The notes: generated from the letters alone by a model not told the origin. A DNA stretch of 32,000 bases from Demequinaceae bacterium (GCA_965250005.1 OZ252279.1:840001-872000), one strand, 5' to 3'; shown: positions 6,407 through 21,162, numbered from the stretch's first letter. Program-made: numbers and translations.

Positions 6407-7813
6407 CTAACCTTCCAGGTCCGACGGGGCGGACAGCGTGCCCCGTATGGCGGTGGCGGCCGCGACGAGCGGCGACACCAAGTGGGTGCGGCCTCCCTTA
6501 CCCTGGCGGCCCTCAAAGTTGCGGTTGGACGTGGACGCGCTGCGCTCCTTGGGCTTCAGCTGGTCCGGGTTCATTCCCAGGCACATCGAGCAGCCGGCAT
6601 TGCGCCACTCGGCCCCAAAGTCGAGGAATACCTGATCGAGGCCCTCGGCCTCGGCTTGAAGCCGCACGCGAGCGGAGCCCGGCACGATCAGCACGGTGAT
6701 GTCGTCCGCCTTCTGCTTGCCCTTCATCATTGCGGCAGTGGCGCGCAGGTCCTCGATGCGGCCGTTGGTGCACGAGCCAACGAAGACCGTGTCGATCTTG
6801 AGATTCTTGAGCGGCGCGCCGGGCGTGAGGCCCATGTACTTGATGGCGTTCTCAGCGGCGACCCGTTCGCTCTCGTCGACGATGTCTGCGGGGTTTGGCA
6901 CGTTCGCGCTGAGCGGCAGGCCCTGGCCCGGGTTGGTGCCCCACGTAACAAAGGGCTCGAGCTCGGATGCGTCGAGTTCAACCTCGATGTCGAAGGTGGC
7001 GTCGTCGTCCGTCTTGAGGGTTTTCCAGTACTCGACGGCCGCGTCCCAGTCGGCGCCTTCGGGCGCATGGGGCCGGCCATCAACGTAGTCGAAGGTGGCC
7101 TGATCGGGGGCGATGAGGCCAGCGCGGGCCCCTGCCTCGATGGACATATTGCACACGGTCATGCGCGCTTCCATGGACAGCGCGCGGATGGCCTCGCCGC
7201 GGTACTCGAGCACGTAGCCTTGTCCCCCGCCTGTGCCGATCTTGGCGATGACCGCCAGGATGATATCTTTCGCGGTGCTGCCTTCGGGAAGCGCGCCGTT
7301 GACGTTGATCGCCATGGTCTTGAACGGCTGAAGCGCTAGTGTCTGGGTCGCGAGCACGTGCTCGACCTCGGAGGTACCGATGCCGAACGCGAGCGCGCCA
7401 AAAGCGCCGTGCGTTGATGTGTGGGAGTCGCCGCAGACAACCGTCATGCCTGGTTGCGTGAGACCGAGCTGCGGGCCGACTACGTGGACGACGCCCTGGT
7501 CGGCATCACCTAAGGAGTGCAGCCGCACGCCGAATTCCTTGGCGTTAACGCGCAGCGTGTCGATCTGGGTGCGGCTGGTGAGGTCGGCAATCGGCTTGTC
7601 GATGTCGAGCGTCGGGGTGTTGTGGTCCTCTGTCGCGATGGTGAGGTCCGGGCGGCGCACAGCGCGGCCAGCGAGGCGAAGACCCTCGAACGCCTGCGGG
7701 CTGGTGACCTCGTGGCACATGTGGAGGTCGATGTAGATGATGTCGGGCGAGCCGTCCTCACCCTTCTTGACCAGGTGGTCCTGCCACAGTTTCTCGGCAA
7801 GGGTCGTGCCCAT
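6407..7813 (-). CDS. leuC: 3-isopropylmalate dehydratase large subunit
   Basis: ORF trimmed to [15 protein letters not shown] (ATG 7811-7813). Aconitase-family Fe-S ligand blocks [36 protein letters not shown]. Confidence 0.95.
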
Positions 7814-7922
7814 TGTGTCCTCCGTGCGGTTCGCGTGTTGTCGAAAACTTGGCGGCAGTATCACTCTGCCAGAGATACCGAGCCTCTTGCCATCTCACAA
7901 TGCGAGACGCTAGTATCGTTCT

Positions 7923-8642
7923 ATGGACAATCATAGCGGAGTTGGCGTCATTGACAAGGCCGCCGCCATCCTTGGCGAACTAGAGGGCGGGCCAGCGACA
8001 CTCGCCGAACTCGTCACCTCGACGCACCTAGCCCGACCAACGGTCCACCGGCTCCTGCTCGCGCTCGAGCACCACCACCTAGTAGGCCGCGACTCCGCTG
8101 GCGCATTCAAGCTCGGAGCACGGTTCGCGCGCCTCGCTGCATCCGTCGGCGAAGACCGGCTGGTTGGCGCCGCCCAGCCCGTCCTGACCGTCCTGCGCGA
8201 CCGCACTGGCGAATCCGCGCAACTGTACCGACCTCACAGGGACCAACGGATTTGCATCGCTTCCGCGGACCGGCCTGTTGGGCTGCGCGACTCAATTCCC
8301 GTTGGCACGACCCTGACGATGGCCGCAGGCTCTGCCGCGCAGGTGCTGCTCGCGTGGGAGGAGCCCCCTCGCATGCACGCCGGGCTGGCCGGGGCTCGGT
8401 TCACGGCCGCCGACCTCGCCAGCGTTCGCGAGGCCGGACTCGCAGAGAGCTCGGGCGAGCGCGAGCCCGGTGTCTCGAGCGTGTCCGCGCCAGTCTGGGG
8501 AGCGGGCGGCACCGTGATCGCGGCGGTGTCCATCTCAGGGCCGACAGAGCGCCTCACCGACCACCCCGCCCAGGAGCACGCGCGTGCCGTGGTGGACGCT
8601 GCCCAACAACTCAGCGACGTACTGCGCCGTACGGACGCCTAG
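7923..8642 (+). CDS. IclR-family transcriptional regulator, divergent from leuCD (LtbR-like position)
   Basis: 239 aa. N-terminal winged-HTH (IDKAAAILGELEGGPATLAELVTSTHLARPTVHRLLLALE) plus an IclR-type effector domain. Its divergent position next to leuC matches the actinobacterial leu/trp regulator arrangement. Confidence 0.85.
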   Translation: MDNHSGVGVIDKAAAILGELEGGPATLAELVTSTHLARPTVHRLLLALEHHHLVGRDSAGAFKLGARFARLAASVGEDRLVGAAQPVLTVLRDRTGESAQLYRPHRDQRICIASADRPVGLRDSIPVGTTLTMAAGSAAQVLLAWEEPPRMHAGLAGARFTAADLASVREAGLAESSGEREPGVSSVSAPVWGAGGTVIAAVSISGPTERLTDHPAQEHARAVVDAAQQLSDVLRRTDA

Positions 8643-8793
8643 CCTCAACTCCGGCACAAATAGCAGCGCCTGTGGGGCTCCGGCGGAAAGCTGGCACGCG
8701 CTCCACCATCGCCCTCACAGGCGCCGACATCCTTTTGACCACCGGCCGATTGTCATCTCCGAGGTGCTCATCACAACCTTGGGCCGGCGCCCT

Positions 8794-9630
8794 CTACGCG
8801 GATACCGCCGGGCTAGGCGACGCAGTGTCCGTCGGCTTGCCGCCCGGAGTGCCCTCCGGCTTGCCGCCGCCAACGCCATCAGGTTTGCCTCCCTGAGCGT
8901 CCTCCGGCTCGTCATCGCCATCAGGCTTACCGCCCGGAGTGCCCTCCGGCTTGCCGCCGATGGCTTTGGCGCGCTCGCTCACGGCTGCGCCAAAATCTGC
9001 CCCGCGAGTCTCGCCGCTCGCCATGAATTGAAGGAGAGCCGAGACGCTCGCACGCGTGTCCGATGACTCGCCCGGGTTGTCATTTGAGACCGCCTCGGCC
9101 GCTACCAGCAGCGCGTCGGCCGCGCCGATCTCGCCGCTCTCGCGGAGAGCCTTGGCTGCATGTTCGATGGCCTCCTCAGCGTCACCTTGGTCATCCAGTT
9201 CGACTGCTTCGTCTAGGCGCTCGTCAATCCCTCCGTCGCCAAGGCCGAAGGCCTCGAACGCACGGTCAACGCCATAGAGGGCATCGCCGGGGATCGCGTT
9301 GTCAGCCGCCGCCGCGGTACCTGCCACACCAATCGATGCCGCCAGGGCGACGAGTCCCGCCACTCCTGCTCGGCGTCTCCAGGTCACAGTTTCGTTCTTG
9401 CTGGTGCCGAGCAGCCTCGATCGTGCGGGAGGCATGGATTCCGCCGAGTTTCGTGCGACTCGCGCCAGAGTAGAAGCGAAGTCCTGGGCGGCTGCCGCGG
9501 ATCCGTCGACCTCCGCCAGCGATCGAATTTTGTCGGTCATTGGCTTCAGGCGGGCAAGGTCTCGGCCCTCAGGGGACTGCCCTGAGAACAACGTGTCAAT
9601 ATCTCGGTCGGACCACTCGCGTTTTGTCAT
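8794..9630 (-). CDS. Putative anti-sigma factor, single-pass membrane protein with DUF5667-like ectodomain (module A partner)
   Basis: ORF trimmed to MTKREWSDRDIDTLFSG (ATG 9628-9630). One TM segment (AGVAGLVALAASIGVAGTAAAA) followed by PGDALYGVDRAFEAF, which resembles the DUF5667 start. Lies directly downstream of an ECF sigma. The C-terminus has a GGKPEGTPGGKP duplication. Confidence 0.65.
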   Translation of the reverse strand: MTKREWSDRDIDTLFSGQSPEGRDLARLKPMTDKIRSLAEVDGSAAAAQDFASTLARVARNSAESMPPARSRLLGTSKNETVTWRRRAGVAGLVALAASIGVAGTAAAADNAIPGDALYGVDRAFEAFGLGDGGIDERLDEAVELDDQGDAEEAIEHAAKALRESGEIGAADALLVAAEAVSNDNPGESSDTRASVSALLQFMASGETRGADFGAAVSERAKAIGGKPEGTPGGKPDGDDEPEDAQGGKPDGVGGGKPEGTPGGKPTDTASPSPAVSA

Positions 9631-9664
9631 GTCACTGCTGTTATCGCCGCCGGGCGCCGAAAGG

Positions 9665-10240
9665 TTACAGATCTGGCGGAATGCGTGCACGCAATGCCGC
9701 GAGCGCCCGATGCTGAAGGGTCTTTACCGCCCCGCTACGCTTGCCCGTGATCGCTGCCGTCTCAGCGACCGAGAACCCGCCGACGATCCTGAGCAGCAGC
9801 ACATTTCGCTGATCATCCGAGAGATCTTCGAGCAACGCTTGTGCGTCGCCGGATGCAATGTTCGCGAGCGCCTCGCCCTCTGCGTTTCCGCCCGCGAGTT
9901 CGAGCGTGGCGGGATCTACATCGGCTGATCGTGGCCGACGGCCAACCGCGCGTCGGTCGTCGAGCATGCGCCGATGCGCGATGACGAACACCCATGATCT
10001 AAACGCGGCCTCGTCGCCCTCGAAGCTTCCGATGCCGTTGGCGACCTGCAGGAACGTCTCGGAAGCGACGTCTTCGGGTTCGCGCGCTCCTCGGCCAGCG
10101 AGGTAGCCCGTCACGGGGCCGGCAAATTCTCGATGAATCTGAGTCCACGCCCACTCAGACCCCTCACGGGCGCCAGCGAGAACCGTCGGGAACGCCTTGC
10201 CTAGGCTCACGGCCCGCCACGCTCCCCATTCATTGACCAA
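9665..10240 (-). CDS. ECF (sigma-70 family) RNA polymerase sigma factor, module A
   Basis: Region 2 (EDVASETFLQVANGIGSF, FRSWVFVIAHRRMLDDRR) and region 4 HTH (LLLRIVGGFSVAETAAITGKRSGAVKTLQHRALAALR). The track start is a TTG. An internal GTG at 10210 is an alternative start. Confidence 0.85.
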   Translation of the reverse strand: MVNEWGAWRAVSLGKAFPTVLAGAREGSEWAWTQIHREFAGPVTGYLAGRGAREPEDVASETFLQVANGIGSFEGDEAAFRSWVFVIAHRRMLDDRRAVGRRPRSADVDPATLELAGGNAEGEALANIASGDAQALLEDLSDDQRNVLLLRIVGGFSVAETAAITGKRSGAVKTLQHRALAALRARIPPDL

Positions 10241-10340
10241 GTATCGCCTTCATGGGGCGCCGGTGGCTCGCGCGGCTCGCAACGGCAGGTAACTTTTGGG
10301 CCTGGAAGCGAAGAACTTCCTGCAGAGTGACGCCGAGTGG

Positions 10341-10416
10341 TGGTAGCCCCGACGGGATTCGAACCCGCGCTACCGCCTTGAGAGGGCGGCGTGCTAGGCC
10401 GCTACACAACGGGGCC
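10341..10416 (-). tRNA. tRNA-Glu (anticodon CTC), CCA encoded
   Basis: The minus strand reads GGCCCCGTTGTGTAGCGGCCTAGCACGCCGCCCTCTCAAGGCGGTAGCGCGGGTTCGAATCCCGTCGGGGCTACCA. It has a 7-bp acceptor stem, an anticodon stem CCGCC/GGCGG with loop CT-CTC-AA, and a T-arm GCGGG-TTCGAAT-CCCGT. Confidence 0.9.
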
Positions 10417-10565
10417 CTAGCGGTCCGGAGCGAATGCTCTCGAACGCGACTACACAGATTACCGCATTGACGCCGAGCCCCGCGACAATGCAGGCGATCG
10501 TCGCGTCGCGAATCCGAGTTGGGCAGTTAAGCACCACCCGAGTCCGGGTACTTCAGCAACGCGAA

Positions 10566-10611
10566 GTACCGCGCACGGCCACCGATGCGGATTCGCGGCC
10601 GTGCGCGGTAC
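10566..10611 (-). terminator. Perfect 15-bp inverted repeat hairpin downstream of the module B partner
   Basis: GTACCGCGCACGGCC (10566-10580) and GGCCGTGCGCGGTAC (10597-10611) with a 16-nt loop, 17 nt after the stop at 10628. No U-tract, so it is either an intrinsic terminator without a tail or an RNA-stability/boundary element. Confidence 0.45.
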
Positions 10612-10627
10612 TAGCTCTTGCGCGTTC

Positions 10628-11470
10628 CTACTGTTCGGCCAACCACTCCGCGTAGCCGGTCGCGTGGCCGGCGTCATACCCGGCAACCCAGCCCGCGTTG
10701 TAGCCGTTTACGAAGGCCACCGAGCCGCTATTGGTCGGCGGTGCATTGTCAGGCGCCTCGCCCGCTCGGCCATCCGCGTAGCCTTGCCAGTCACCTTCAT
10801 GTACGCCCTCGCCGTGTCCCAGGTTGTAGTCCCAGTCTGCGAGCGCGGCTTGGCCAGCGGCGTAGCCGTCATCGTACTTACTCCGCCAACCTGCCTGCCA
10901 ACCTGCAATGTAATCTGCCGAAGACGAGCAATCGTCAGGGGTGTCGTCGAATCCATTGTTGTCGTGGCCGTCCTGGTAGCCGGCCGCGTGCCCGTAGGAT
11001 TCGCCGTCGGCGAATCCGCTCGCGTATTCCTCAGACGGGTCCTGCGTGGGGACGGGGTCCGGGTGCGGGTCGGGGTCCGGGTGCGGGTCGGGATCGCTCG
11101 CGGTTTCACCCTCTGGAGCGGGCTCGTGCGTCTCCGTTTCCGGTTCTTCCGCGACGTGAGTGGGCGCTGGGCTGGGTGTGTGCTCAGCAACCTGATGCGG
11201 GTCGGGATCGGGGCTGTGTGTTGCACTCGGCGCGGGCGTCACGGATCCGGCAGCTATGTCGCCGCTTGCCTGGACGATGTTGGCCACCGCCATGCCGCCA
11301 AGCAACAATCCAGCGCCCACCGCGAGCGCCCCACCGCCGAGTTCCGCATGCTTGACCAAGCGGCCGCGGCGTGCCGCGCCCATCAGTTTCGCATCGGACG
11401 TATGCGCGCCCGGCTTCTGGTGCGCCGCGTCGCTCGCCATTTCTTCCATCATGTCGTGGATATTCTTCAT
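10628..11470 (-). CDS. Sigma-coupled single-pass membrane protein with acidic Pro/Asp linker and Gly-aromatic tetrad-repeat ectodomain (module B partner)
   Basis: ORF 10628-11662 trimmed to MKNIHDMMEEM. Its ATG (11468-11470) overlaps the sigma B stop (TGATG). One TM (GGGALAVGAGLLLGGMAVANIV), then a PDPDPH linker, then repeats such as FADGESYGHAAGYQDGH, IAGWQAGW, YDDGYAAG, NGYNAGWVAGYDAGHATGYAEW. Confidence 0.75.
   Translation of the reverse strand: MKNIHDMMEEMASDAAHQKPGAHTSDAKLMGAARRGRLVKHAELGGGALAVGAGLLLGGMAVANIVQASGDIAAGSVTPAPSATHSPDPDPHQVAEHTPSPAPTHVAEEPETETHEPAPEGETASDPDPHPDPDPHPDPVPTQDPSEEYASGFADGESYGHAAGYQDGHDNNGFDDTPDDCSSSADYIAGWQAGWRSKYDDGYAAGQAALADWDYNLGHGEGVHEGDWQGYADGRAGEAPDNAPPTNSGSVAFVNGYNAGWVAGYDAGHATGYAEWLAEQ
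11054..11095. repeat. 18-bp tandem repeat, about 2.3 copies, encoding (DPDPHP)n
   Basis: ggggtccgggtgcgggtc occurs at 11054-11071 and 11072-11089, plus a partial third copy. In frame within the module B partner. Confidence 0.85.
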
Positions 11471-12015
11471 CACTTGCCTCCATTTCCTAGGGCCACGCGC
11501 GCGGTTTCCCGCGGCGCAGCGTCGACCGCATCGCTTCCCAGCCGGACCCTGAGCTTGCCCGAAGCGTTGAAGACATATCGCTTCACCGTGCCTTCGGCGA
11601 GCTTCAGCGCGACTGAAATCTGTGGGGTTGTCATGTCCTCGAAGTACTTGAGCACGATGCACGCGCGTTCCTGGGGGCTGAGCCCCGCGAGCGCGCTGTG
11701 CAGATCCGCATGAGCGCCTACCCAGCCGTCATGACTTTCCGAAGCCTCGGGCAAGGCAATCGTCGCTTTCTTGGCGTTCGCGACGTTCGCCCGCCGAGCC
11801 CGACTGATTACTTCATTGGCGATTGCCCGCTTCACGTAGGACTCGGCTGAATCCACGGTGGTTTTCGACCGCCCGCGCACGAATGCCTTGACGATCGCTT
11901 CTTGAGCAACTTCCTCGGCGTCGGCCATCGAACCGGTCAAGAGATAGGCGTAGCCCACAAGCGCGCGACGCCGGTCGCGCACGACGCGCTCCATCACACT
12001 GTGCCAACTCTCCAT
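11470..12015 (-). CDS. ECF sigma factor, module B (paralogue of modules C, D, E)
   Basis: ORF 11470-12114 trimmed to MESWHSVMERVV (ATG 12013-12015, GGAGG 5 nt upstream). Region 2: RRALVGYAYLLTGSMADAEEVAQEAIVKAF. Region 4: LSPQERACIVLKYFEDMTTPQISVALKLAEGTVKRYVFNASGKLR. Confidence 0.85.
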   Translation of the reverse strand: MESWHSVMERVVRDRRRALVGYAYLLTGSMADAEEVAQEAIVKAFVRGRSKTTVDSAESYVKRAIANEVISRARRANVANAKKATIALPEASESHDGWVGAHADLHSALAGLSPQERACIVLKYFEDMTTPQISVALKLAEGTVKRYVFNASGKLRVRLGSDAVDAAPRETARVALGNGGK

Positions 12016-12330
12016 CGTGACCTCCGCTAGTGGTGCTCTCGTGTACTTAGACGCCACAGGTACACGATTGGTTGTATTGGCCCTCAAGTTTGCCGTGCGC
12101 GGCTTGGCCATCAAATTTCTTTGAGAAATGGTGAATCAAGGCCGGAGCACAGCAACCTAGCCGACGAACGTTCAGAAGTCGCATCCGGCTGCGACGCCCG
12201 CGGCATTGCGTTTCCTGGCGTTGACGGAAGCAAGGTTGGCGCGGTTCGAAGCCATAATCACCCGCGATAAGAACTGGGAGGCGCACCACATCCCACAAAC
12301 TGCCATGTCCCGGCCGGCCACCCATAGATA

Positions 12331-12356
12331 AAGAAAAAGGCCCGCCGAAGCGGGCC
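12331..12356 (-). terminator. Rho-independent terminator after tRNA-Gln
   Basis: The minus strand reads GGCCCGC-TTCG-GCGGGCC followed by TTTTTCTTTAT, 10 nt downstream of the tRNA-Gln 3' end. Confidence 0.7.
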
Positions 12357-12366
12357 TGAAACAAAG

Positions 12367-12438
12367 CTGGGGTACCAGGACTCGAACCTAGACTAAGAGA
12401 ATCAGAATCTCTCGTGCTGCCAATTACACCATACCCCA
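12367..12438 (-). tRNA. tRNA-Gln (anticodon CTG), CCA not encoded
   Basis: The minus strand reads TGGGGTATGGTGTAATTGGCAGCACGAGAGATTCTGATTCTCTTAGTCTAGGTTCGAGTCCTGGTACCCCAG. Anticodon stem AGAGA/TCTCT with loop TT-CTG-AT, T-loop GGTTCGAGTCC, and a U1-A72 pair typical of tRNA-Gln. Confidence 0.9.
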
Positions 12439-12577
12439 ATGGCCCCAACCGGAGTCCGGGCCGAGGCACCACTTTAGCGCCTCCGCGGTTGGCGCCCAAC
12501 CACAGCAGGTGCCTCCGGCCTCGGCGGTGACCGGCGCGCGCAGGGAAAAGGCCGCCGAGCGCGCCGCTCGCGGAACC

Positions 12578-13771
12578 CTAGAAGGTCTCGGCGTAGGCCG
12601 CCACACCCGCTGCGTACCCCGGGCCGTAGCTCGAGAGATAGCCGTCGGAGTAGCCATTCTGGAACGGGTACCAACTACCCCACTCGCTCTCTGGGTAGAA
12701 TTCGTTGCGTCCGTCCGGGGCATCGTCGCGGCTTCCGAAACCGTCGTCGTACCCGTCGGCGTAGCCATCGGCGGCGCCCGCGACCCAGCCATCATCGTAG
12801 GCCTTGTCGATCAGTGCCGCGAGGTGAGCCACTCCCTCCGCGTAGCCATCGGCGTACCCGATTCCGTAAGAAGCCTGGAAGCCAAGGCGCAGCCACTCTC
12901 GTTCGATCTCCGGTACCGATGCGTTGTAGTCACGGTCATTTGCGCCGTCATCGTAACCCTCCTCGTAGCCCCACTCCAGGCCCAATGCGTAGCCAGCTAC
13001 GTAGTCGTCTTCAGCCTCTTGCTCGCCGTGGGCGTACGCGTCCGCGTACGTCGCGGCGTACCCGGCTGCGTAGCCATCGCGGTAGGCCTCAGAACCATCG
13101 CCAACCTCAAATGACGCGTCGAACTCGTTGCCGTGGTATCCGTCTTGCACGCCTTGCTCTGACGCGGCGCCACTACCCGCTTCGTAGCCGTCGGCGTAGC
13201 CGCCGTCACCCTCTGGCGCGGGCTCGTCGTTCGGCTCGTCGTTCGGCTCGTCGTTCGGCTCGTCGTTCGGCTCGTCGTTCGGCTCGTCGTTCGGCTCGTC
13301 GTTCGGCTCGTCGTTCGGCTCGTCGTTCGGCTCGTCGTTCGGCTCGTCGTTCGGCTCGTCGTTCGGCTCGTCGTTCGGCTCGTCGTTCGATTCCGTCTGA
13401 CCGTCGCCTTCGTGTTCGTCTGCGTCAGTTTCTGTCGGGTGGTCAGGCTCGGGTTCATCATGCTCGGTTGCTTCGTTCTCTTCCTTCTCAACTTCTCGGT
13501 TCTCAAGTTCGTCGAGCCAGTCCTCGAATACATGGCCAGGGTCGTCGACACTGTTTGCGTCGGCGGCGTCTACGATGTTCGCAACGGCGACGCCGCCAAA
13601 GATGAGGCCGACAGACGCGACGAATGCCATCCCCGCGAGCCCCGTGGCCCACCTGGCGCGACTGCGGCGCGCTTGATCGATCAGTTCGACCCCGTCCGTG
13701 GCCGCCTTGGCCTTGTGCTCGGCGCCCGCTGCCGTAGCTAGGTCGCTCAGCGCACTGTTCATGTCGTTCAT
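12578..13771 (-). CDS. Sigma-coupled single-pass membrane protein with (NDEP)14 stalk and large Gly-aromatic tetrad-repeat ectodomain (module C partner)
   Basis: 397 aa. Its ATG overlaps the sigma C stop (ATGA at 13768-13771). One TM (WATGLAGMAFVASVGLIFGGVAVANIV), an acidic linker, (NDEP)14, then repeats such as YADGYEAG, YRDGYAAGYAATYADAYAHG, WGYEEGYDDG, IGYADGYAEG, DGYADGYDDGF, NGYSDGYLSSYGPGYAAG. Confidence 0.8.
   Translation of the reverse strand: MNDMNSALSDLATAAGAEHKAKAATDGVELIDQARRSRARWATGLAGMAFVASVGLIFGGVAVANIVDAADANSVDDPGHVFEDWLDELENREVEKEENEATEHDEPEPDHPTETDADEHEGDGQTESNDEPNDEPNDEPNDEPNDEPNDEPNDEPNDEPNDEPNDEPNDEPNDEPNDEPNDEPAPEGDGGYADGYEAGSGAASEQGVQDGYHGNEFDASFEVGDGSEAYRDGYAAGYAATYADAYAHGEQEAEDDYVAGYALGLEWGYEEGYDDGANDRDYNASVPEIEREWLRLGFQASYGIGYADGYAEGVAHLAALIDKAYDDGWVAGAADGYADGYDDGFGSRDDAPDGRNEFYPESEWGSWYPFQNGYSDGYLSSYGPGYAAGVAAYAETF
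13220..13387. repeat. Perfect 12-bp tandem array, 14 copies, encoding (NDEP)14
   Basis: The plus-strand unit cggctcgtcgtt (minus AAC GAC GAG CCG) occurs 14 times with one substitution in the terminal unit (ggg for cgg). The copy number agrees with the ORF length (128 + 56 + 213 = 397 aa). Confidence 0.97.
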
Positions 13772-14316
13772 CGCGTTCCTCCATCTTTGACTGCCACGCG
13801 GATAAGTTCCCGTGGTTCCGGATCAGCCATCGTGCTTCCCAGGGTGTCGCGGAGTTTCTCGGCCGCGTTGTGCAGGTAGCGCTTGACCGTGCCCGCCGAG
13901 AGCCTGAGCTCATCTGCGATTTGCGCCACTGTCATATCCTCGAAGTACCGCATAACTACGCACGCTCGTTCTTGCGCGCTCAATCCGGCAAGGGCCTTGT
14001 GAATGTCTGCGTGGACTCCTACCCACGTCTCGTGACCGGGCTCCGACTCCGCTGCAGCGAGGGCGGCGCTTCTTGCGGCAGCGACCTTTCGGTGCCGGGC
14101 ACGGTTGATCGTTTCGTTGACGATTGCCCTCTTGATATACGCTTCCGCGGTCTCGACTTCCCTCTTGGCCCGCCCACGAGCGAAAGTCTTGACGATCGCG
14201 TCCTGCGCAATCTCCTCGGCTTCGGACATTGACCCCGATACCAAGAACGCGTAACCCACAAGCGCATGGCGACGCTCGCGAACGATCCGCTCCATCACCT
14301 CGGCCCAACTAGTCAT
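13768..14316 (-). CDS. ECF sigma factor, module C
   Basis: ORF 13768-14355 trimmed to MTSWAEVMERIV (ATG 14314-14316, GGAGG upstream). RHALVGYAFLVSGSMSEAEEIAQDAIVKTF and LSAQERACVVMRYFEDMTVAQIADELRLSAGTVKRYLHNAAEKLR. It is the closest paralogue of sigma B. Confidence 0.85.
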   Translation of the reverse strand: MTSWAEVMERIVRERRHALVGYAFLVSGSMSEAEEIAQDAIVKTFARGRAKREVETAEAYIKRAIVNETINRARHRKVAAARSAALAAAESEPGHETWVGVHADIHKALAGLSAQERACVVMRYFEDMTVAQIADELRLSAGTVKRYLHNAAEKLRDTLGSTMADPEPRELIRVAVKDGGTR

Positions 14317-14340
14317 GCGCGCCTCCGTCGACTGTCCCTT

Positions 14341-14402
14341 CACTAAGACAGACACCGTAACGCCGCTTTTCGTTGTAGCCCAAGTCTGTGAGGTTTCTCA
14401 CA
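14341..14402 (-). promoter_or_regulatory. Upstream region of sigma C: CRP/GlxR-type box plus a block shared with the sigma B upstream region
   Basis: TGTGA-GGTTTC-TCACA at 14387-14402. The adjacent minus-strand sequence is ACTTGGGCTACAACG-N17-GTCTGTCTTAGTG. The sigma B upstream region (12045-12091) has ACTTGAGGGCCAATACAACC-N17-GTCTAAGTA. Confidence 0.4.
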
Positions 14403-14496
14403 CGCGCTCCGCCAGCCGCGCACAACCCTTAGATCGGCGTGCCGCGTGGGACGCGCCAGCGGCCCGCCTGCGCCGGGTCTCTCGCCAGGTCTCGTT

Positions 14497-15273
14497 CTAA
14501 TCGTCTTCGTCGTCTTGAGGGCCCCGGGAATCCTTCTTCGACTTGTCCTCGCTCTTGCCGTTCCCCTGGTTTTCGGGTCCTTGCGCATTCCCTTGCGCAT
14601 TCCCTTGCGCATTCCCTTGCGCATTCCCTTGCGCATTCCCTTGCGCATTCCGGCCGCTAGAGGAATTTGCGTCACCGGCATTCGCTGAAGAGCCCTCCGC
14701 TCGACCCGGGTTTTGCGCCCCGTGGGTCTTCGATTCATCGACGAACCCATCCACGTACCCATCGGCGAAGCCCCGCTGGTATCCCTCCTCATACGTAACG
14801 CCATCCTGGGCCGCGACGCGAGAAACCATGTCCGAGTCGATTCGCTCCGTCAGGCTCGCGCCGTAGATCAATCCCTCGGCATAGCCGTCTAGGTATCCCG
14901 CTGCAAGGCCTGCCTCAAACTCGTCAATCCCGTCGGAGTGCTCCGCGTTGCGGAGCGCCTGAAGCGCGGGGCCGACGCTACTCGGGTTGACCGTAGGAGG
15001 CGCGCTAGGGCCAAGGGAGGCTGCGTGCTCTGGGAGTTCAATGCTCGTCGCAGCTTGCGCACCCTCCGTCGAGGTCACCGCCGCAATCGCGGCGGAGCCG
15101 ATAGCCACCCCCACAACGCTGGCCAGAGCGGCGCTCGCGACTGCCGTGAGTCGCATGGCCTTGCCGCGCCTCACTGCCCGCACAACTTCCGTACCATCGT
15201 CCTCGGTCATGATCCGCGTACGGGTAGCGGCCGCGCGCGACAAACCCGAGAGCCTCTCACCCAAGATTCTCAT
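14497..15273 (-). CDS. Sigma-coupled single-pass membrane protein with Gly-aromatic tetrad repeats and C-terminal (GNAQ)6 array (module D partner)
   Basis: 258 aa. Its ATG overlaps the sigma D stop (ATGA at 15270-15273). One TM (LTAVASAALASVVGVAIGSAAIAAV), then EAGLAAGYLDGYAEGLIYG and EEGYQRGFADGYVDGFVDE, then (G/R)NAQ x6 and a Lys/Asp-rich tail. Confidence 0.75.
   Translation of the reverse strand: MRILGERLSGLSRAAATRTRIMTEDDGTEVVRAVRRGKAMRLTAVASAALASVVGVAIGSAAIAAVTSTEGAQAATSIELPEHAASLGPSAPPTVNPSSVGPALQALRNAEHSDGIDEFEAGLAAGYLDGYAEGLIYGASLTERIDSDMVSRVAAQDGVTYEEGYQRGFADGYVDGFVDESKTHGAQNPGRAEGSSANAGDANSSSGRNAQGNAQGNAQGNAQGNAQGNAQGPENQGNGKSEDKSKKDSRGPQDDEDD
14581..14652. repeat. 12-bp tandem array, 6 copies, encoding (GNAQ)6
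   Basis: ttgcgcattccc x5 (14581-14640) plus ttgcgcattccg (14641-14652). In frame in the module D partner. Confidence 0.97.
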
Positions 15274-15818
15274 TGCCCAACCCCGGTTCGTAGCGCTGCG
15301 CGGATCATCGCATGCTGGTCGCGCGGCTGACTGGACGCTTCTAGAGAGGTCTCAATTTTCGATATGGCGTTCTCCATGTAGCGGTCCACGGTCGTGACGG
15401 ACAGCCGCGTAAGAGCGACGATTTGAGCAGTCGATCGCTGGTCCACGTATCGAAGCACCACGCACGCTCTCTCCGCGACAGTCAATTCCTCGATCGCGTC
15501 GTGAACATCGGAGTGTATTCCCATCCACGGTTCACTTCTTCGCGTTGGAATCCGCCCCGTCAAGGATGCTCCGCGAGACTTTTGCGCGGGGTCGCGGCGC
15601 GCACGGTCAACAAGGCTCTTAACGATTCGGGCCTCAATACGGTCCTCGGCATCGCGGACGGTGAGACCGCTCTTGGCGCGGGAAAGAATTCCGACGATCG
15701 CGTCTTGCGCTGCCTGTTCCGCGTGGGGCATGGACCCGCAGATGAGAAAGGCGTAGCCCACGAGGGAGGGCCGACGCTCGCGCGCGATGGCCTCGATGAC
15801 TCCTGGCAACTCTGCCAT
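15270..15818 (-). CDS. ECF sigma factor, module D (more divergent paralogue)
   Basis: ORF 15270-15848 trimmed to MAELPGVIEAIARERRPSLVGYAFLICGSMPHAEQAAQDAIV (ATG 15816-15818, GAGGAG 8 nt upstream). Region 4: LTVAERACVVLRYVDQRSTAQIVALTRLSVTTVDRYMENAISKI. Confidence 0.8.
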   Translation of the reverse strand: MAELPGVIEAIARERRPSLVGYAFLICGSMPHAEQAAQDAIVGILSRAKSGLTVRDAEDRIEARIVKSLVDRARRDPAQKSRGASLTGRIPTRRSEPWMGIHSDVHDAIEELTVAERACVVLRYVDQRSTAQIVALTRLSVTTVDRYMENAISKIETSLEASSQPRDQHAMIRAALRTGVGQ

Positions 15819-15915
15819 GAGGTGCTCCTCAGGGAACGCAACCCCCACCGGGTCGCTAGTTTAGGCTAGCGCGCACCACAGACAAGTGCAGGGTGAGGCG
15901 CCCCGATCATACCGT

Positions 15916-16182
15916 TTACAACAATATATCCACGACAGATGTGAGAGATTTCACACGGTCCACGCGGGCGTCCGTGACCTCTTGTTCAGGGACCGACGGC
16001 CAGTTTCCGACGCGTTCACACCAGACGCCGCGTAGCCCGGGAGCCTTGGACGCCACCGCGTCGATGTCGAACTCGTCGCCGACGTACATGGTTCGCGCCG
16101 GGTCAGTATTGAGCCAGCGGCACGCCTCGAGGTAGACGCGCGAGTCTGGCTTGCCGAATCCTCTTCCAACACAGCCGAATGA
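15916..16182 (-). pseudogene. HAD-superfamily hydrolase remnant (C-terminal ~88 codons only)
   Basis: FGCVGRGFGKPDSRVYLEACRWLNTDPARTMYVGDEFDIDAVASKAPGLRGVWCER aligns with the C-terminal half of the intact HAD at 18050-18856 (VGKPDPRVFLLACEKLGTEPGQTLYVGDEFDIDGLGALNAGLQSAWLDR). No DxDxT motif-I region is found upstream in any frame. Confidence 0.55.
15940..15955. promoter_or_regulatory. CRP/GlxR-type box upstream of sigma D
   Basis: TGTGA-GAGATT-TCACA, both half-sites perfect, 122-137 nt upstream of the sigma D ATG. Followed on the minus strand by an AT-rich stretch (GGATATATTGTTGTAAACGGTATGAT). Overlaps the last codons of the HAD remnant. Confidence 0.4.
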
Positions 16183-16395
16183 ACGGGTTTGCCGGACTCC
16201 GGGCACAGCCCTACCGACACTTCCCAAGGCCAGGCAATCCGCCCGAAACTTCCCTGGCAAAGGGCGTCTCTTACTGCGCAGGAGGCAGTTCGAAGTTGTC
16301 CCACCAGTGGTCCATATAGATTTCGACGGCTCGGGCGTAGGTTCTCGACCACGATGACCAATGCGCCCCCCAGCCGCAGGAACAACGCGGCCGCA

Positions 16396-16429
16396 CTGTG
16401 GGTCGCGCACGTCTGCGCACGACCCACAG
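16396..16429 (-). terminator. 10-bp perfect stem hairpin just downstream of the ParB/AIPR-like gene
   Basis: CTGTGGGTCG (16396-16405) and CGACCCACAG (16420-16429) with a 14-nt loop, 8 nt after the stop at 16438. No clear U-tract. Confidence 0.4.
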
Positions 16430-16437
16430 CAAGATCC

Positions 16438-17820
16438 CTAGTGGTTCGCGCGCCGCAGGACCGACTCAAAAACATTCTGTGCGAGCCGGTAAACCTCGAT
16501 CGACTTGCCGAACTTCTGCGGGTCATAGTCGAGCGGAGCCATGAAGAGCGAGATCTGCGGCACGATCTCGGCAAGGTGCTTCTTCAGGAAGTCGGCAGGG
16601 TCTACCTTCCAACGCACCGTCTCCCCATCGACTTCAAGGAGCGCACGAAGACCGTATACGTACGGCCAGATGAAGCCCTCGGGCACCCGCCACTCAACAT
16701 TCGTACCCGTGAATGGCGTGACGTGCTGGATCTTGGAGTTCTGATTCATCTTCTTGTTGGCGGTGATCCGGCCCCACTTGCCACTCGCCTCGCTGTTGTA
16801 GAGACCGGGCACATTCGCGTAGATGTAGTCAAACAACTGCGGCATCTTGACCGCGACATCCAACGCGGACTTCACCGAGATGCTCGCAGGCACCTTGGCT
16901 GTCTGGCCAGGAGGAAAGACCTCCTGAGAAGACATGAGGCGCTCGAAACGGGAGACGCAGTCCCCCTTGCTCCGATAGAGGTTCTGAGGAACGGGAGCAG
17001 AGACTTCGCGCTCCTCGGAGTCCTTCGGCAGTTCCTCAACCACACCGAGCGGAACCCACGCGAGCGCGACGATATCGCCAACCTTGATCTTCCCACCCTC
17101 GTTGGTCTTCCACTCCACGTTCTGTGAGACGTCCTTCTGAAGGACTTCCTTGAGGTAGTCGAAGTAGCCCGCCTGGTTCGCCTTGGCCTCAATGCGCAAC
17201 TGCACGTTGTTGTTGCGCGCCGAGCAAATGGCGATGAGGGAGTCGTTGAAGGCGTCGACGGCGATCGGATCCTCAGGCTCCGACGGCACAATAAGTTCGA
17301 CGGGGACGAGAACATCCAGTTCAGGCGCAACGTCCTGTTGCGCCTTCACGCGGGTCTTGAGCGCACGCAGGGCTTCCGATTGCGCGTTCCAGAGGTCTCG
17401 GAACGCGAGCCAGTTCTTCGCCCCGCGAATATCCTTCTCGTTCACACCGGCAACCCGAAGCAGAAGGCGGCCGATCTCAAGCGAGTTGTGCCCGCCGTCA
17501 AGGATGCCCTCAAGCCGCGGCTCAACCACGCTGATCTCGTAACGGCCACGATCCCGCCGCGTGTACTTCGCGGATGCGAGGAGGATGCCCTTCGTCTTCA
17601 GGGGGAAGATGTCTGGAGTTTTCTCGATCGACTCTGCAATTGCGTCCGTCACGGACCCAACGCGCGCCGACCGGGGATTCGCATCGAGATCCACAACTTC
17701 GAGGATGTCAATGAAATTCTTGATCCGTACCATCCCCATGACTCGGACGATGTGATCAATTTCCTGTTCGAAGCTGTGCTCGAACTTGATGGTTACTGCG
17801 GTTTCAATAGAAGGCTTCAT
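16438..17820 (-). CDS. ParB/sulfiredoxin-like N-terminal domain protein, AIPR/DndB-like abortive-infection candidate
   Basis: ORF 16438-17877 trimmed to MKPSIETAVTIKF (ATG 17818-17820, GAAGGGGG upstream), 460 aa. VVDLDANPRSARVGSVTDAIAESI and EGILDGGHNSLEIG resemble ParB-fold NPR and DGxH(R/N) motifs. ICSARNNNVQLRIEAKANQ recalls AIPR-type blocks. GC looks lower than the flanks by eye. The function is inference. Confidence 0.7.
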   Translation of the reverse strand: MKPSIETAVTIKFEHSFEQEIDHIVRVMGMVRIKNFIDILEVVDLDANPRSARVGSVTDAIAESIEKTPDIFPLKTKGILLASAKYTRRDRGRYEISVVEPRLEGILDGGHNSLEIGRLLLRVAGVNEKDIRGAKNWLAFRDLWNAQSEALRALKTRVKAQQDVAPELDVLVPVELIVPSEPEDPIAVDAFNDSLIAICSARNNNVQLRIEAKANQAGYFDYLKEVLQKDVSQNVEWKTNEGGKIKVGDIVALAWVPLGVVEELPKDSEEREVSAPVPQNLYRSKGDCVSRFERLMSSQEVFPPGQTAKVPASISVKSALDVAVKMPQLFDYIYANVPGLYNSEASGKWGRITANKKMNQNSKIQHVTPFTGTNVEWRVPEGFIWPYVYGLRALLEVDGETVRWKVDPADFLKKHLAEIVPQISLFMAPLDYDPQKFGKSIEVYRLAQNVFESVLRRANH

Positions 17821-17878
17821 CAGATGAGCCCCCTTCCCCTGCTGTTGCAGGCGTAGGGGTGCACAGAAAACGGGCATG

Positions 17879-17908
17879 AAAAAACCGCCTCGTCATAGAC
17901 GAAGGCGG
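17879..17908 (-). terminator. Rho-independent terminator after the gltX-HAD unit
   Basis: The minus strand reads CCGCCTTCGTC-TAT-GACGAGGCGG (one bulge) followed by TTTTTT. It lies about 140 nt downstream of the HAD stop and immediately upstream of the ParB/AIPR-like gene. Confidence 0.65.
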
Positions 17909-18049
17909 CGCTCACGTATCCGTGGTCGCCGTGCACCTGTCCAGGCGTACATTCCGGCCACCCATCCGGGTGACCTCCGTCCAGCATACCGCATCGGCAA
18001 GGAATTGTGAGGCCCTACCGTGTGTCGTCTCGTGAAGCGTCTACCCGCG

Positions 18050-18856
18050 CTAGGTTTGCTCGACCGCGATACGAGCCACGTCGGCAAGCGACGTGGCTCG
18101 TATGAGCCCGCTCTCCTCGGCTGCTTCCATCTCATACGCTGGGATCTCGCGCGTCCGCACCCCCGGACGGTCGAGCCACGCTGATTGGAGCCCGGCATTG
18201 AGAGCGCCCAATCCGTCAATGTCGAATTCGTCGCCCACATAGAGCGTCTGACCTGGTTCCGTGCCGAGTTTCTCGCAGGCCAACAGGAAGACTCGGGGAT
18301 CCGGTTTGCCGACGAATCGCGGCGCTTGAGCGCCTGCGCCGGGAACATTTATAGGATTGGCGTTTCCGAATCCCAGCGTGTCCACGCCGACGAGCATGGG
18401 GACTCGCTCCAGACCAACGGCCGCGAGCTTGCCCGCTTGGTATCCGAATCGCGCATTACTTAGCGCGCCGTACGGGATCGCCTCAGCGTCAAGAAAATCG
18501 AGCAGCGGCGCGGCGTCGGGGTGCGCCACCCAGCCGTTCTGGAACGCCTGCTCGAACACGTCCACCCACTCGACGTACTCGTCGTCGCGGAGATCGGGTC
18601 CCTCGTACACCTGGTGCATGTCAACCACGCGCAGCTTGCGCTGCTCGAAGGCCGACGTCTCGCCGCGAGCGTGTGCGCGGTAGTGGCTGTAACGATCTGC
18701 GCGCCAGAACTCGGTGACCTCGAGCGCAGCTGCACCCGCCCGCAAGTGAGGGACGGCAACTACGGCGATCGCGTGCGCGAACGCCGCCTTGGTATCCACA
18801 AGTGTGTCGTCGATGTCGAGCAGCACTCCGTCAATGTCCCGCCCTCGCGCAGTCAC
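18050..18856 (-). CDS. HAD-superfamily hydrolase
   Basis: ORF 18050-19114 trimmed to an in-frame GTG at 18856 (VTARGRDIDGVLLDIDDTLVDT), 7 nt after the gltX stop. Motif I DIDDT, GKPDPRVF, and motif IV YVGDEFDID. The upstream part of the ORF overlaps gltX and is Arg/Ser-rich. Confidence 0.85.
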   Translation of the reverse strand: MTARGRDIDGVLLDIDDTLVDTKAAFAHAIAVVAVPHLRAGAAALEVTEFWRADRYSHYRAHARGETSAFEQRKLRVVDMHQVYEGPDLRDDEYVEWVDVFEQAFQNGWVAHPDAAPLLDFLDAEAIPYGALSNARFGYQAGKLAAVGLERVPMLVGVDTLGFGNANPINVPGAGAQAPRFVGKPDPRVFLLACEKLGTEPGQTLYVGDEFDIDGLGALNAGLQSAWLDRPGVRTREIPAYEMEAAEESGLIRATSLADVARIAVEQT

Positions 18857-18863
18857 GCCGGCA

Positions 18864-20345
18864 CTAGAGAGTGGCCCGGAGGCGGCGCAAGCGAGCGAGC
18901 GTAGACCCCTGTCCGAGTATCTCCATTGACTCGAATAGCGGCGGCGATACCAGCCGGCCGGTGACCGCGACCCGCAGCGGCCCGAAGGCGAACCGCGGCT
19001 TGATCTCCATCTTCTCCACGAGGACGACCTTGAGCGCGTCCTGCTGTGACTGAGCCGAGAAGTCCTCGAGCACATCAAGGACCGCGATCGACGCGTCAAG
19101 GATCTCGGCGGCATTGCCCGGTAGCTTGGCGATCGCCGCTACCTCGTACTCGATCCCGACGTCGGCGGTGAAGAAGAAACCGAGCATTCCCGGCGCCTCG
19201 CTGAGCATCTGAATGCGTTCTTGGACGAGCGGCGCAGCCGCAGCCAGAATGGCTTCTTCGTTCGGGAGCAAGTCGCGCACGGCTGACGCACTCACCACGC
19301 CCGCGGCGTGCAAGTACGGCACGAGCCTCACGACGAAATCCCCCATGGGCAAGAGCCGCATGTGTTCGGCGTTGATCGCCTCGGCCTTCTTCATGTCGAA
19401 CCGCGCGGGGTTGGAATTGACGTCGACAACGTCGAACGCGGTGATCATCTCGTTAAGAGTGAAGACGTCGCGGTCGGCCGAGATGCTCCAGCCGAGCAGC
19501 GCCAAGTAGTTCAGCAGGCCCTCGGGCAGGAAGCCGCGGTCACGGTGGTGGAGCAAGTTGGATTCAGGTTGGCGCTTGCTGAGCTTCTTGTTGCCCTCGC
19601 CGGTGACCATCGGCAGGTGCGCGAACGTAGGCACGGCATCGCCAATGCCCAATTCCACGAGCGCCCTGTGAAGAGTGATCTGGCGGGGAGTAGAACTCAA
19701 CAGGTCCTCGCCCCGAAGCACGTGCGTGATTTTCATCAGTGCATCGTCCACGGGGTTAACGAGCGTGTAGAGCGGGTCCCCATTGCCACGCACGATCACG
19801 AAGTCCGGGATGGAGCCCGCGGGAAATGTGACCTCGCCGCGCACCAAGTCAGTGAAGGTGATGTCCTCATCCGGCATGCGCACGCGTATGACGGGCTTGC
19901 GCCCCTCGGCAAGGTACGCAGCCTTCTGCTCGTTCGTCAGGTCGCGGTCAAAGCCGTCGTAACCGAGCTTGGGATCACGCCCGGCTGCCGAATGGCGCGC
20001 CTCGGTTTCATCGGGGGTGGAGAAGGACTCGTACGCATACCCGCCTTCGATCAGGCGACGAGCAACGTCGTCGTGCAGGTCTCGGCGTTGGCTCTGCCGG
20101 TACGGACCGTAGTCGCCGCCAACCTCGGGACCCTCGTCCCAGTCGAGACCGAGCCAGCGCAGCGACTCGAGCAGCTGCGTGTAAGACTCGTCCGAGTCGC
20201 GCGCGGCGTCCGTGTCCTCAATGCGGAAGACGAAATCCCCGCCCGTGTGCCGCGCGTACGCCCAGTTAAACAGCGCGGTGCGGATGAGTCCGACGTGAGG
20301 CGTGCCGGTAGGGGATGGACAGAAACGGACGCGAACCTTTGTCAA
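18864..20345 (-). CDS. gltX: Glutamate--tRNA ligase
   Basis: 493 aa. [16 protein letters not shown] (HIGH-type motif region) and KLSKR (KMSKS motif). TTG start with GAGGAG 5 nt upstream. Confidence 0.95.
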
Positions 20346-20373: not shown

Positions 20374-21162
20374 TCATCGGCGAACCACGGGGTTCATGAG
20401 TACTCCGATACCTTCAATGTCTACTTCGATCCGGTCACCGTGGACCATTTTGGCCACCCCTGCGGGCGTTCCCGTGAGGATCACATCGCCCGGTAGCAGG
20501 GTCACCACCTCGGAGGCAATCTCGATCGCCGTAGCTACGTCGCGGATCATGTCGCTCGTATTGCCCCCCTGGCACGACTTGCCATTAAGTCGCGAACGAA
20601 TCTCGAGACTTGACGTGTCCAGTTCCGTCTCGATCCAGGGCCCAAGCGGCAGCGACGTGTCGAACGCCTTGGCCCGGAACCACTGGTCCTCGTTGCGCTG
20701 CAGGTCGCGCGCCGTCACGTCATTCGCGCACGTGTATCCGTACACGTAGTCAAGCGCGCGCTCGGCCGTGACGTCCTTGGCCATGCGGCCGATCACCACG
20801 GCCAGCTCTGCCTCAAATTGCACGTCTTCGCTGTAGTGCGGCAGGACGATCGGGTCGTCCGGACCAATCACGGACGTGTTCGGCTTGAGGAACAGGATCG
20901 GCACGTCCGAGTCCGGGCCGCGGCTCGGAATCTCTCTAGCGTGCGCCTCGTAGTTCTTGCCAAGGCAGACTGCCTTGGACCGCGGGATGATGGGAGCGAG
21001 CAGTCGCACGTTGTCGGAATCAAGCGGAACGCGCTCGCCCGTTGGCTGCCCGGGAACGAACATTGGGTCCCCCGAGAGCACTACCAGTTCCTCGGCCCCA
21101 GGGTCACCTTCGACCATGGCATAGCGAGGGTCCTGACCAGTGGTGAACCGTGCGATGCGCAT
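20374..21162 (-). CDS. Fumarylacetoacetate hydrolase (FAH) family protein
   Basis: 262 aa. [54 protein letters not shown] blocks typical of FAH/HpcE-like enzymes. The position upstream of gltX is conserved in Actinobacteria (from memory). Confidence 0.9.

Follow-up and report, generated by a model that had tools for sequence, protein, structure and literature searches.

Introduction

Pairs of an extracytoplasmic function (ECF) sigma factor and its anti-sigma factor are among the commonest signalling devices of bacteria, and actinobacteria have many of them. Here we describe a stretch of 32,000 nucleotides from a Demequinaceae bacterium (GCA_965250005.1 OZ252279.1:840001-872000; the window, from whose first letter all positions are counted), where four modules, each comprising a gene for an ECF or ECF-like sigma factor (sigA to sigD) and one for a membrane partner (partA to partD), are threaded on the minus strand around tRNA-Gln and tRNA-Glu, and a fifth pair (sigE/partE), with a frameshifted sigma gene, stands farther along on the plus strand. 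The clustering is striking, with five ECF-type genes in 32 kb and four of them in 7 kb. We consider it probable that the locus is a Demequinaceae-specific region of gain and loss around the two tRNAs, here housing four two-gene operons of two ECF families with the partners as putative anti-sigma factors. The elements concerned, including open reading frames (ORFs), are:

8794-9630 or 8794-9690, minus: partA, start uncertain (ATG at 9630 or GTG at 9690)
9665-10240, minus: sigA, ECF sigma factor, Pfam r2 and r4_2 above cut-off
10341-10416, minus: tRNA-Glu (CTC), called by ARAGORN and Rfam
~10562-10609 (approximate), minus: terminator-like hairpin with a 15-bp inverted repeat, directly 3' of the partB stop
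10628-11470, minus: partB, ORF of 280 aa, no Pfam family
11470-12015, minus: sigB, 181 aa from MESW, ORF extending to 12114; database protein P0008
12050-12075, minus: sigB promoter ACAAC-N16-GCGTC, ECF type
12338-12357, minus: intrinsic terminator 3' of tRNA-Gln, kept in loci L031 and L002
12366-12438, minus: tRNA-Gln (CTG), called by ARAGORN and Rfam
12578-13771, minus: partC, ORF of 397 aa
13768-14316, minus: sigC, 182 aa from MTSW, ORF extending to 14355; database protein P0001
14351-14376, minus: sigC promoter ACAAC-N16-GTGTC
14387-14402: perfect TGTGA-N6-TCACA palindrome (CRP/GlxR-like), directly before the -35 element of sigC
14497-15273, minus: partD, ORF of 258 aa
15270-15818 or 15270-15848, minus: sigD, divergent ECF-like sigma factor, start uncertain
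15940-15955: another perfect TGTGA-N6-TCACA palindrome, before sigD and within the 3' remnant of a HAD gene
27036-27598, plus: sigE, the fifth sigma gene, frameshifted, Pfam r4_2 in the frame 27047-27598
27595-28560, plus: partE, 321 aa, intact; in public databases as P0141

Relationship to described sigma/anti-sigma systems

Predicted ECF anti-sigma factors mostly lack Pfam matches and cross the membrane with a single transmembrane (TM) helix (Casas-Pastor et al. 2021, PMC7826278). The window modules resemble this arrangement in that the sigma factor has the sigma-2 and sigma-4 domains only, the coupled partner follows immediately downstream with one TM and its N-terminus inside, and an AAC...CGTC-type promoter precedes the sigma gene, suggesting autoregulation. 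They depart from it in that the ~40-residue cytoplasmic part of the partners matches no described anti-sigma domain, and the outer part is, except in partE, acidic and of low complexity rather than a folded sensor. Among the recognized anti-sigma classes, the class I domains (ASDI, zf-HC2, RskA, RsdA) are four-helix units of ~50-100 residues, whereas the partners have only ~40-45 residues before the TM; ASDI, moreover, excludes domains of less than 50 aa (PMC7406223). Class I membership was set aside, there being no profile match and too short a cytoplasmic segment. Two-helix class II anti-sigma factors, whose short helices wrap sigma-2 and sigma-4, are also known (PMC7406223), and here the resemblance to the CnrY type extends to a cytoplasmic segment of less than 50 residues before a single TM and to two short conserved helical stretches that the alignment pattern of the partners suggests. 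However, the partners have neither sequence similarity to this class nor a sequence match in PDB, and CnrY is small with a short periplasmic part, unlike the window partners with their 100-330 residues outside.

On the sigma side, the SigE family, a group restricted to actinobacteria (TIGR02983), is the top NCBIfam model for sigB, sigC, sigD and the sigE of the window, with scores of 108.1, 108.1, 55.3 and (for the sigE frame) 30.5 bits that all lie below the cut-off of 141.55; P0110 from Promicromonospora, 36% identical to sigC, is named 'SigE family' by NCBI. The actinobacterial clade of ECF222, ECF51, ECF38 and ECF39 has common anti-sigma types (PMC7826278), and sigB, sigC and sigD probably belong in it, judging solely by their similarity to TIGR02983. 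Unlike Streptomyces coelicolor SigE (ECF39 subgroups 1-3), which has a two-component system, the window sigmas have none with them, and they form their own Micrococcales branch marked by a C-terminal tail of ~21 residues. Short C-terminal extensions have been described in some ECF groups (PMC7826278). Module A recalls a different precedent, the ShbA and BldN sigmas with their RsbN-type (class III) anti-sigma factors: these are actinobacterial, supply the best NCBIfam models for sigA and likewise have a membrane partner downstream. Nevertheless, sigA scores far below the respective cut-offs (PRK09648, ShbA: 89.8 bits against 209; TIGR02952, BldN: 76.9 against 206.45), and partA shows only a 16-residue match to DUF5667.

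A variable region around tRNA-Gln and tRNA-Glu

The window, with a G+C of ~64-65%, is actinobacterial in character, and its IclR is 85% identical to that of Demequina aurantiaca and D. oxidasica, the best values among the species representatives searched; its source is a Demequina species absent from those representatives. The minus-strand order is FAH, gltX, a HAD hydrolase gene, an ORF of 479 aa, a 3' remnant of the HAD gene, sigD/partD, sigC/partC, tRNA-Gln, sigB/partB, tRNA-Glu and sigA/partA, after which IclR stands on the plus strand with leuC and then leuD next. ORF and tRNA calls reproduce the module order given in the initial annotation, together with its fifth, frameshifted pair and its spacings of 5612 bases from HAD to tRNA-Gln, 1950 between the tRNAs and 1699 from tRNA-Glu to IclR.

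Comparison with close and distant relatives shows that the layout of this locus, the presence of the modules and their copy number all vary. In the outgroups Brachybacterium (L043) and the actinomycete metagenome-assembled genome (MAG) UBA10649 (L046), IclR, tRNA-Glu, tRNA-Gln, gltX and FAH are compactly arranged with spacers of ~30-220 bp, the first four within ~0.7 kb, which bears out the near-contiguity of gltX, tRNA-Gln, tRNA-Glu and IclR that the initial annotation gave as usual in actinobacteria. In contrast, across ~45 Demequinaceae loci all three intervals are expanded, from 0.1 to ~10 kb, and the cargo differs: DCC1-like genes, a GH9 cellulase and a gene showing faint Ig-like matches, an ArsR/ArsP set and, in L056, an ABC transporter-like gene pair (judged from translations only). 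The usual occupant of the inter-tRNA spacer in other Demequinaceae is a clpB-like AAA+ gene of 715-734 codons, found between tRNA-Glu and tRNA-Gln in L004, L006, L022, L056, L060 and L061; the 32 kb of the window hold no clpB, and sigB/partB take up this spacer instead. The earlier view of the site as a colonised, tRNA-flanked hot spot is borne out to this extent.

The sigma modules themselves are unevenly distributed over these loci. Module A is found beside tRNA-Glu in more than 20 Demequina loci and is missing or fragmentary in others. L031 (two), L035 and L038 are the only loci where a profile of sigB, sigC and sigD finds matching sigmas no farther than 10 kb from IclR, and contigs reached through the proteins P0017, P0038, P0004 and P0003 (L060-L065) add four further lineages with the layout gltX-HAD-sigma-partner-tRNA-Gln; no such C-type module occurs in L004, L006, L022, L024 or L041, where the interval is fully covered. 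The number of C-type modules per locus ranges from 0 to 3 across species, and one C-type module after HAD is a common but patchy Demequinaceae layout. L031, a MAG, comes closest to the window: it has a module whose sigma (sigC') is 70% identical to sigC and a second module adjoining HAD, in the same order as in the window, with a partner of similar architecture to partD and a sigma only 32% identical to sigD.

We also observed in D. gelatinilytica (L016, 13822-17478) two tandem sigA/partA modules beside tRNA-Glu, clearly diverged when their translations are compared by eye; therefore, module duplication at this locus happened more than once.

Module B as an insertion between the tRNAs

A spacer of 114 bp separates the two tRNAs in L031 and L002. 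Aligned with either, the window loses homology directly past the tRNA-Gln terminator and regains it ~50 nt short of tRNA-Glu; the ~1.87 kb in between make up a self-contained unit with promoter, sigB, partB and hairpin. Such a module between the tRNAs was seen in no locus other than the window, and neither the loci nor the 120 best homologues include an orthologue of sigB. Module B is best seen as an insertion relative to L031 and L002, as judged from the aligned flanks. It shows no target duplication at its boundaries; 7800-19300 contains no tRNA-derived or att-like direct repeats, and no integrase-like domain turned up in the ORFs scanned, which did not include every small ORF. A tRNA-targeting integrative island was considered and discarded, with no integrase in those ORFs and no repeat of a tRNA 3' end.

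Sigma factors of two ECF families

ECF (group 4) sigma factors are recognized by the presence of sigma-2 and sigma-4 and the absence of sigma-3, here scored with TIGR02937 or the Pfam r2 and r4 cut-offs. By domain content sigA, sigB and sigC qualify as ECF sigma-70 factors: both Sigma70_r2 (PF04542) and r4_2 (PF08281) are above cut-off, and TIGR02937 gives 58-64 bits against a cut-off of 42.9. For sigD, which reaches 33.6 bits with this model and lacks a significant sigma-2 match, and for the sigE frame, only r4_2 passes the Pfam cut-off. SigB, sigC and sigD are paralogues, the first two 57-60% identical at the protein level and sigD 35-41% identical to both; sigA, only 21% identical to sigB, places module A in a different, ShbA/BldN-like type, so that the four modules span two ECF families. 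The frame of sigE breaks at a C6 run near 27381, by either sequencing error or pseudogene formation, and the repaired protein is nearest to a Cellulomonas-type branch (41%). The grouping of B, C and D as clear paralogues in the initial annotation accordingly stands. The motifs it described as shared by these sigmas and the copy at 27036 are complete in B and C and only partial in D and E: sigD has SLVGYA and is without DMT, and sigE has QLFGYA. The recognition helix GTVKRY, nearly invariant in the family and common to sigB and sigC, reads TVDRY in sigD.

The likely starts of sigB and sigC are MESW (12015) and MTSW (14316), giving 181 and 182 codons, which are preferred because they match P0008 and P0001 and fit the promoter positions. 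The tail following region 4.2, previously put at ~25 residues with a strand-like motif, is real and is a family trait of ~21 residues (median over 110 homologues, 21); outside the Demequina clade (48 of the 110 sequences) the alternating hydrophobic motif is not clear, and AlphaFold2 models the tail as a low-confidence coil. Gly-Gly occurs near the tail ends because the Shine-Dalgarno sequence of the partner is encoded there.

As to age, the best DNA similarity among the sigB, sigC and sigD genes is 72-75% over 108 nt (~75% for B and C). Both a neighbour-joining tree and BLAST rankings pair sigC with the sigC' of L031 and put several proteins from metagenomes (P0003-P0007, 62-66% identical) nearer to sigC than they put sigB. 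To every member of its clade sigB stands at much the same distance (57-61%), and it has no known close orthologue. The duplications that gave rise to B, C and D are hence old, given these DNA values, the protein divergence and a sigB that is not sister to sigC.

Beyond the Demequinaceae, sigC homologues of 37-47% identity are found in Cellulomonas, Actinotalea, Isoptericola, Xylanimonas and Promicromonospora. In C. flavigena (L057 6001-9623), A. fermentans (L067 5001-8835) and I. variabilis (L066 5001-6433) the sigma/partner module adjoins an H+-pyrophosphatase gene, and the partners, overlapping the sigma gene, are 295-419 aa long without a Pfam match; that of C. flavigena is annotated 'conserved hypothetical protein'. 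Conserved tandem pairs occur in C. flavigena and A. fermentans. The nearest solved sigma structure is Mycobacterium tuberculosis SigL (E 1e-10).

Operon coupling, promoters and regulatory sites

All the sigma stop/partner start overlaps claimed for modules B to E can be read directly in the sequence, namely TGATG at 11468-11472 and ATGA at 13768-13771, 15270-15273 and 27595-27598. The final codons of the sigma gene contain the partner Shine-Dalgarno sequence (GGAGG or GGAGGA), and the overlap is 1 or 4 nt in L057 and L061-L067, except for a 2-nt gap in L064. Translational coupling of sigma and partner is thus conserved in every homologue examined.

When the 160 nt that precede the sigma genes in the window, L031, L035, L057 and L060-L065 are aligned, cTACAAC-N16-G(T/C)GTCt emerges ~30-60 nt before the sigma start codon in spacers that are otherwise unconserved. 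Besides sigB and sigC, homologous sigma genes have it upstream in all the related loci where such a gene is present. ACAAC-N16/17-GYGTC occurs exactly twice in the window, before sigB and before sigC, with 0.36 occurrences expected; TACAAC-N16/17-GYGTC occurs in 12 of 65 loci, 11 times directly upstream of a C-type sigma gene and once, probably by chance, before an unrelated ORF in L028. In the window scan sigD and sigE are without the motif. It is best read as a predicted autoregulatory promoter, its AAC/CGTC character being typical of ECF promoters. Given the strong terminator after tRNA-Gln (12338-12357), sigB would be transcribed on its own; a scan of 8600-16500 for sigma-70 promoters found none.

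The two TGTGA-N6-TCACA palindromes contrast with an expectation of 0.01 per window and with only 2 matches in 67 other loci, one of them at the corresponding place before the second L031 module (20031-20046). The palindrome before sigD lies inside the HAD C-terminal coding remnant, where protein sequence may constrain it too.

Partner proteins

Each partner has one hydrophobic segment, at about aa 45-66 with 2-6 Lys/Arg before it and 0-1 after, and in partA at aa 90-108; by hydropathy the TM lies at aa 48-66 in partB, 45-63 in partC and 48-66 in partD. Because Lys/Arg precede the TM and acidic residues succeed it, the predicted topology is single-pass, N-terminus inside and C-terminus outside. 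An alignment of 14 Demequina and Cellulomonas partners holds over the N-terminal ~40 residues, which read L..LA, then, past a variable stretch, D...L...ARRGR..W, and lead into a Gly-rich TM; the outer parts are unalignable between homologues except among the GY types described below. No Pfam or NCBIfam anti-sigma model matches any partner. The attribution of partA to DUF5667 was not upheld, PF18915 giving 17.0-17.3 bits against a cut-off of 27 over 16 residues at the model start only; a literature search for DUF5667 found no papers.

The outer parts of the Demequina partners comprise 16-46% Asp+Glu, with an isoelectric point of ~4.1-4.8 and lineage-specific tandem repeats. Those of partB, partC and partD have period-4 repeats of the form G-[YFW]-x-x-[GA]. 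PartB combines the conserved ~40-aa N-terminus with an acidic outer part of Pro/Asp/His-rich segments and GY(xx)G repeats. The outer part of partC (30% Asp+Glu) has PNDE 14 times, encoded by a perfect in-frame 12-bp array at 13221-13389 (14.1 copies), followed by GY(xx)G repeats; partD has another perfect in-frame 12-bp array at 14579-14651 (6.1 copies, NAQG x6) and two GY blocks. PartE has the same N-terminal pattern and one TM; its outer part is just mildly acidic and not rich in repeats. PartA ends in GGKPxG repeats.

We noted that the C-terminus of partA (8821-8958) is encoded by imperfect 24/42-bp repeats specifying GGKP(E/D)G(T/V)PGGKP. At positions comparable to those of the 12-bp arrays of partC and partD, orthologous partners from other genomes have repeats of another kind, which suggests that repeats in the outer parts turn over rapidly.

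Several apparent relationships of these segments dissolve on inspection. The period-4 pattern recalls the GxxxG repeats of FliH/YscL, with weak FliH matches (E 4e-6 to 2.5e-4), in composition and periodicity only, and the window repeats are extracytoplasmic; the NCBIfam FliH and TonB matches were dismissed as compositional, as was the PADLOC match of partC (PD-T4-6, E 1e-6), located in its acidic repeat region. The GY-repeat segment as a defined family was rejected: its 20 matches among 1.84 billion representative proteins are weak and to unrelated long repeat proteins.

Proposed mechanism and alternative explanations

We advance the following scheme. The conserved ~40-residue cytoplasmic segment of the partner would hold its cognate sigma at the membrane as a short, class II-like anti-sigma domain, until a signal acting on the outer part or the envelope releases it; the freed sigma might then transcribe its own operon from TACAAC-N16-G(T/C)GTC. 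Because they have this promoter and the recognition helix in common, sigB and sigC probably feed one promoter class from two different sensors. SigD, with its divergent sigma-2 region and no such promoter, and the frameshifted sigE could be diverged or decaying copies. Module A and one C-type module would be old residents of the locus, and module B, with promoter, sigma, partner and hairpin together, may have entered between the terminator of tRNA-Gln and the promoter of tRNA-Glu. Envelope sensing by the modules is plausible; the further suggestion of surface variation draws solely on the perfect in-frame 12-bp repeats.

Several points weigh against this interpretation. The binding of sigma by its partner, and with it the putative anti-sigma function, is something we infer: no anti-sigma domain in Pfam, NCBIfam or PDB corresponds to the partner N-terminus, whose 70-column profile had no match at E <= 0.001 in 5.8 billion proteins, the domain being too short and too weakly conserved for a database of that size. 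An AlphaFold2 model of sigC fused to residues 1-68 of partC, from an alignment of 4 paired and 74 sigma-only rows, is confident for sigma-2 and sigma-4 and uninformative on the interface, the tail and the partner, one long low-confidence helix, having a predicted local distance difference test (pLDDT) score of 50-72; single-sequence modelling of the sigC and partC fusion (mean pLDDT 54) is uninformative too. As regards history, the neighbour-joining tree has no support values, the orthology of sigD with the second sigma of L031 (32% identity) draws mainly on position, and the arrival of module B is undatable because the best relative shows only 85% IclR identity.

A different reading makes the partners co-transcribed acidic surface or wall products, with the sigmas controlled transcriptionally (e.g., through the CRP-like sites) or via their C-terminal tail. 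It would account for the want of a recognised anti-sigma domain, for a cytoplasmic part of only ~40 residues and for extremely acidic, repetitive outer parts like those of structural surface proteins, and it can call upon the perfect TGTGA-N6-TCACA sites upstream of sigC and sigD and the family-wide conservation of the ~21-residue tail. Yet what is conserved across genera is the cytoplasmic N-terminus with the TM and not the outer part, which this reading fits less well, and the tight translational coupling to sigma persists across Micrococcales families; further, a single TM without a Pfam match is the rule for predicted ECF anti-sigmas (PMC7826278) and two-helix class II factors offer a precedent for a short domain (PMC7406223). 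We consider it unlikely, though the least unlikely of the competing accounts. More doubtful is the possibility that active in situ amplification of the cassette generates variation in copy number or surface, as the initial annotation proposed in calling it locally amplifying. Three paralogous modules side by side, the range of 0 to 3 copies between species, the tandem sigA/partA modules of L016, the tandem pairs of Cellulomonas and Actinotalea and the scope for slippage in the 12-bp arrays of partC and partD all point that way. They are outweighed by the deep divergence of the paralogues in protein (57-60% and 35-41%) and DNA (at best 72-75% over 108 nt), by a sigB that is not sister to sigC, by the 70% positional orthologue of sigC in L031 (where D has only its weak 32% counterpart), by the absence of long direct DNA repeats flanking the modules and by the tandem pairs in other genera being old as well; in addition, A belongs to another family and the C module is common.

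The converse account, that the whole array including module B is ancestral, with the modules lost in other Demequinaceae and the tRNA spacer never colonised, strikes us as similarly improbable. Widespread C-type and A-type modules at the same positions, a sigB divergence as old as the clade and the lack of insertion scars or an integrase would be expected under it; on the other hand, L031 and L002, the nearest loci sampled, have 114 bp between the tRNAs, with conserved terminator and promoter flanks, and in the outgroups the tRNAs are close together, other species have the clpB-like gene in the inter-tRNA spacer, and a sigB orthologue is wanting in every locus and among the 120 best homologues. 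The data agree with a permissive site at which modules were repeatedly gained and lost and now and then duplicated, and we retain the gain-and-loss region with its putative sigma/anti-sigma operons as the preferred explanation. The system is ordinary in kind, its copies are old, and two of the four modules are at positions where many Demequinaceae have a homologous one; only the crowding is unusual. The modules are best described as new, uncharacterised members of the ECF sigma/membrane-partner type in a lineage-specific variable region.

A bolder proposal, to which we give little credence at present, is that the Micrococcales sigma/partner family constitutes a new anti-sigma class, in which a two-helix cytoplasmic hook of ~40 residues is joined to a hypervariable, strongly acidic outer part, built of repeats such as the GxxxG-type GY repeats and the perfect 12-bp arrays and acting as a tunable cation or wall sensor; in this genome the two sensors B and C would both act on a single class of promoter, and the cAMP-receptor-type sites would provide a second input at sigC and sigD. 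Short of this, the surroundings of tRNA-Gln and tRNA-Glu are now documented as a hot spot of gain and loss in one family, the Demequinaceae, against outgroups in which they are compact. A clear conserved promoter motif, which could serve to predict the regulon, is available for a Micrococcales ECF branch not characterised before, and partners annotated only as 'hypothetical protein' can be recognised by a short cytoplasmic signature. Should the partner turn out to have anti-sigma function, it would represent a further type with a short domain, whose sensor region is disordered and acidic; this would be relevant to synthetic sigma/anti-sigma pairs that work orthogonally and to the ways in which Gram-positive bacteria sense their envelope.

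The HAD gene and neighbouring features

Upstream of the modules on the same strand lie the following features:

15922-16161, minus: 3' end remnant of the HAD gene, 80 codons, found by tblastn, 58% identity to aa 152-231 of the L031 HAD
16438-17877, minus: ORF of 479 aa, no family, in a low-GC insert outside the sigma system
18050-19114, minus: HAD hydrolase ORF, homology to the L031 HAD beginning near 18826
18864-20345, minus: gltX
20374-21162, minus: FAH

The HAD ORF as called mechanically (18050-19114) starts 250 bases within gltX. Because homology to other HAD proteins begins only there, the real start is probably near 18826 and the long N-terminal extension spurious. Between the intact HAD gene and the native 3' remnant is ~2.2 kb of low-GC DNA (0.59-0.61) with the 479-aa ORF; in the intact gene, GKPD is immediately preceded by 19 residues inserted at the junction, and the 3' end is divergent. 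The HAD gene has been rebuilt by insertion (15922-18370), and ~2.2 kb of the 5.6-kb gap between HAD and tRNA-Gln is an insertion unrelated to the sigma system. Pfam, NCBIfam and PADLOC offer no family for the 479-aa ORF; its sole match is a sub-threshold one to AIPR (abortive infection; E 0.14). It has NPR...DGGHN motifs, and the insert may be a small defence or mobile insertion.

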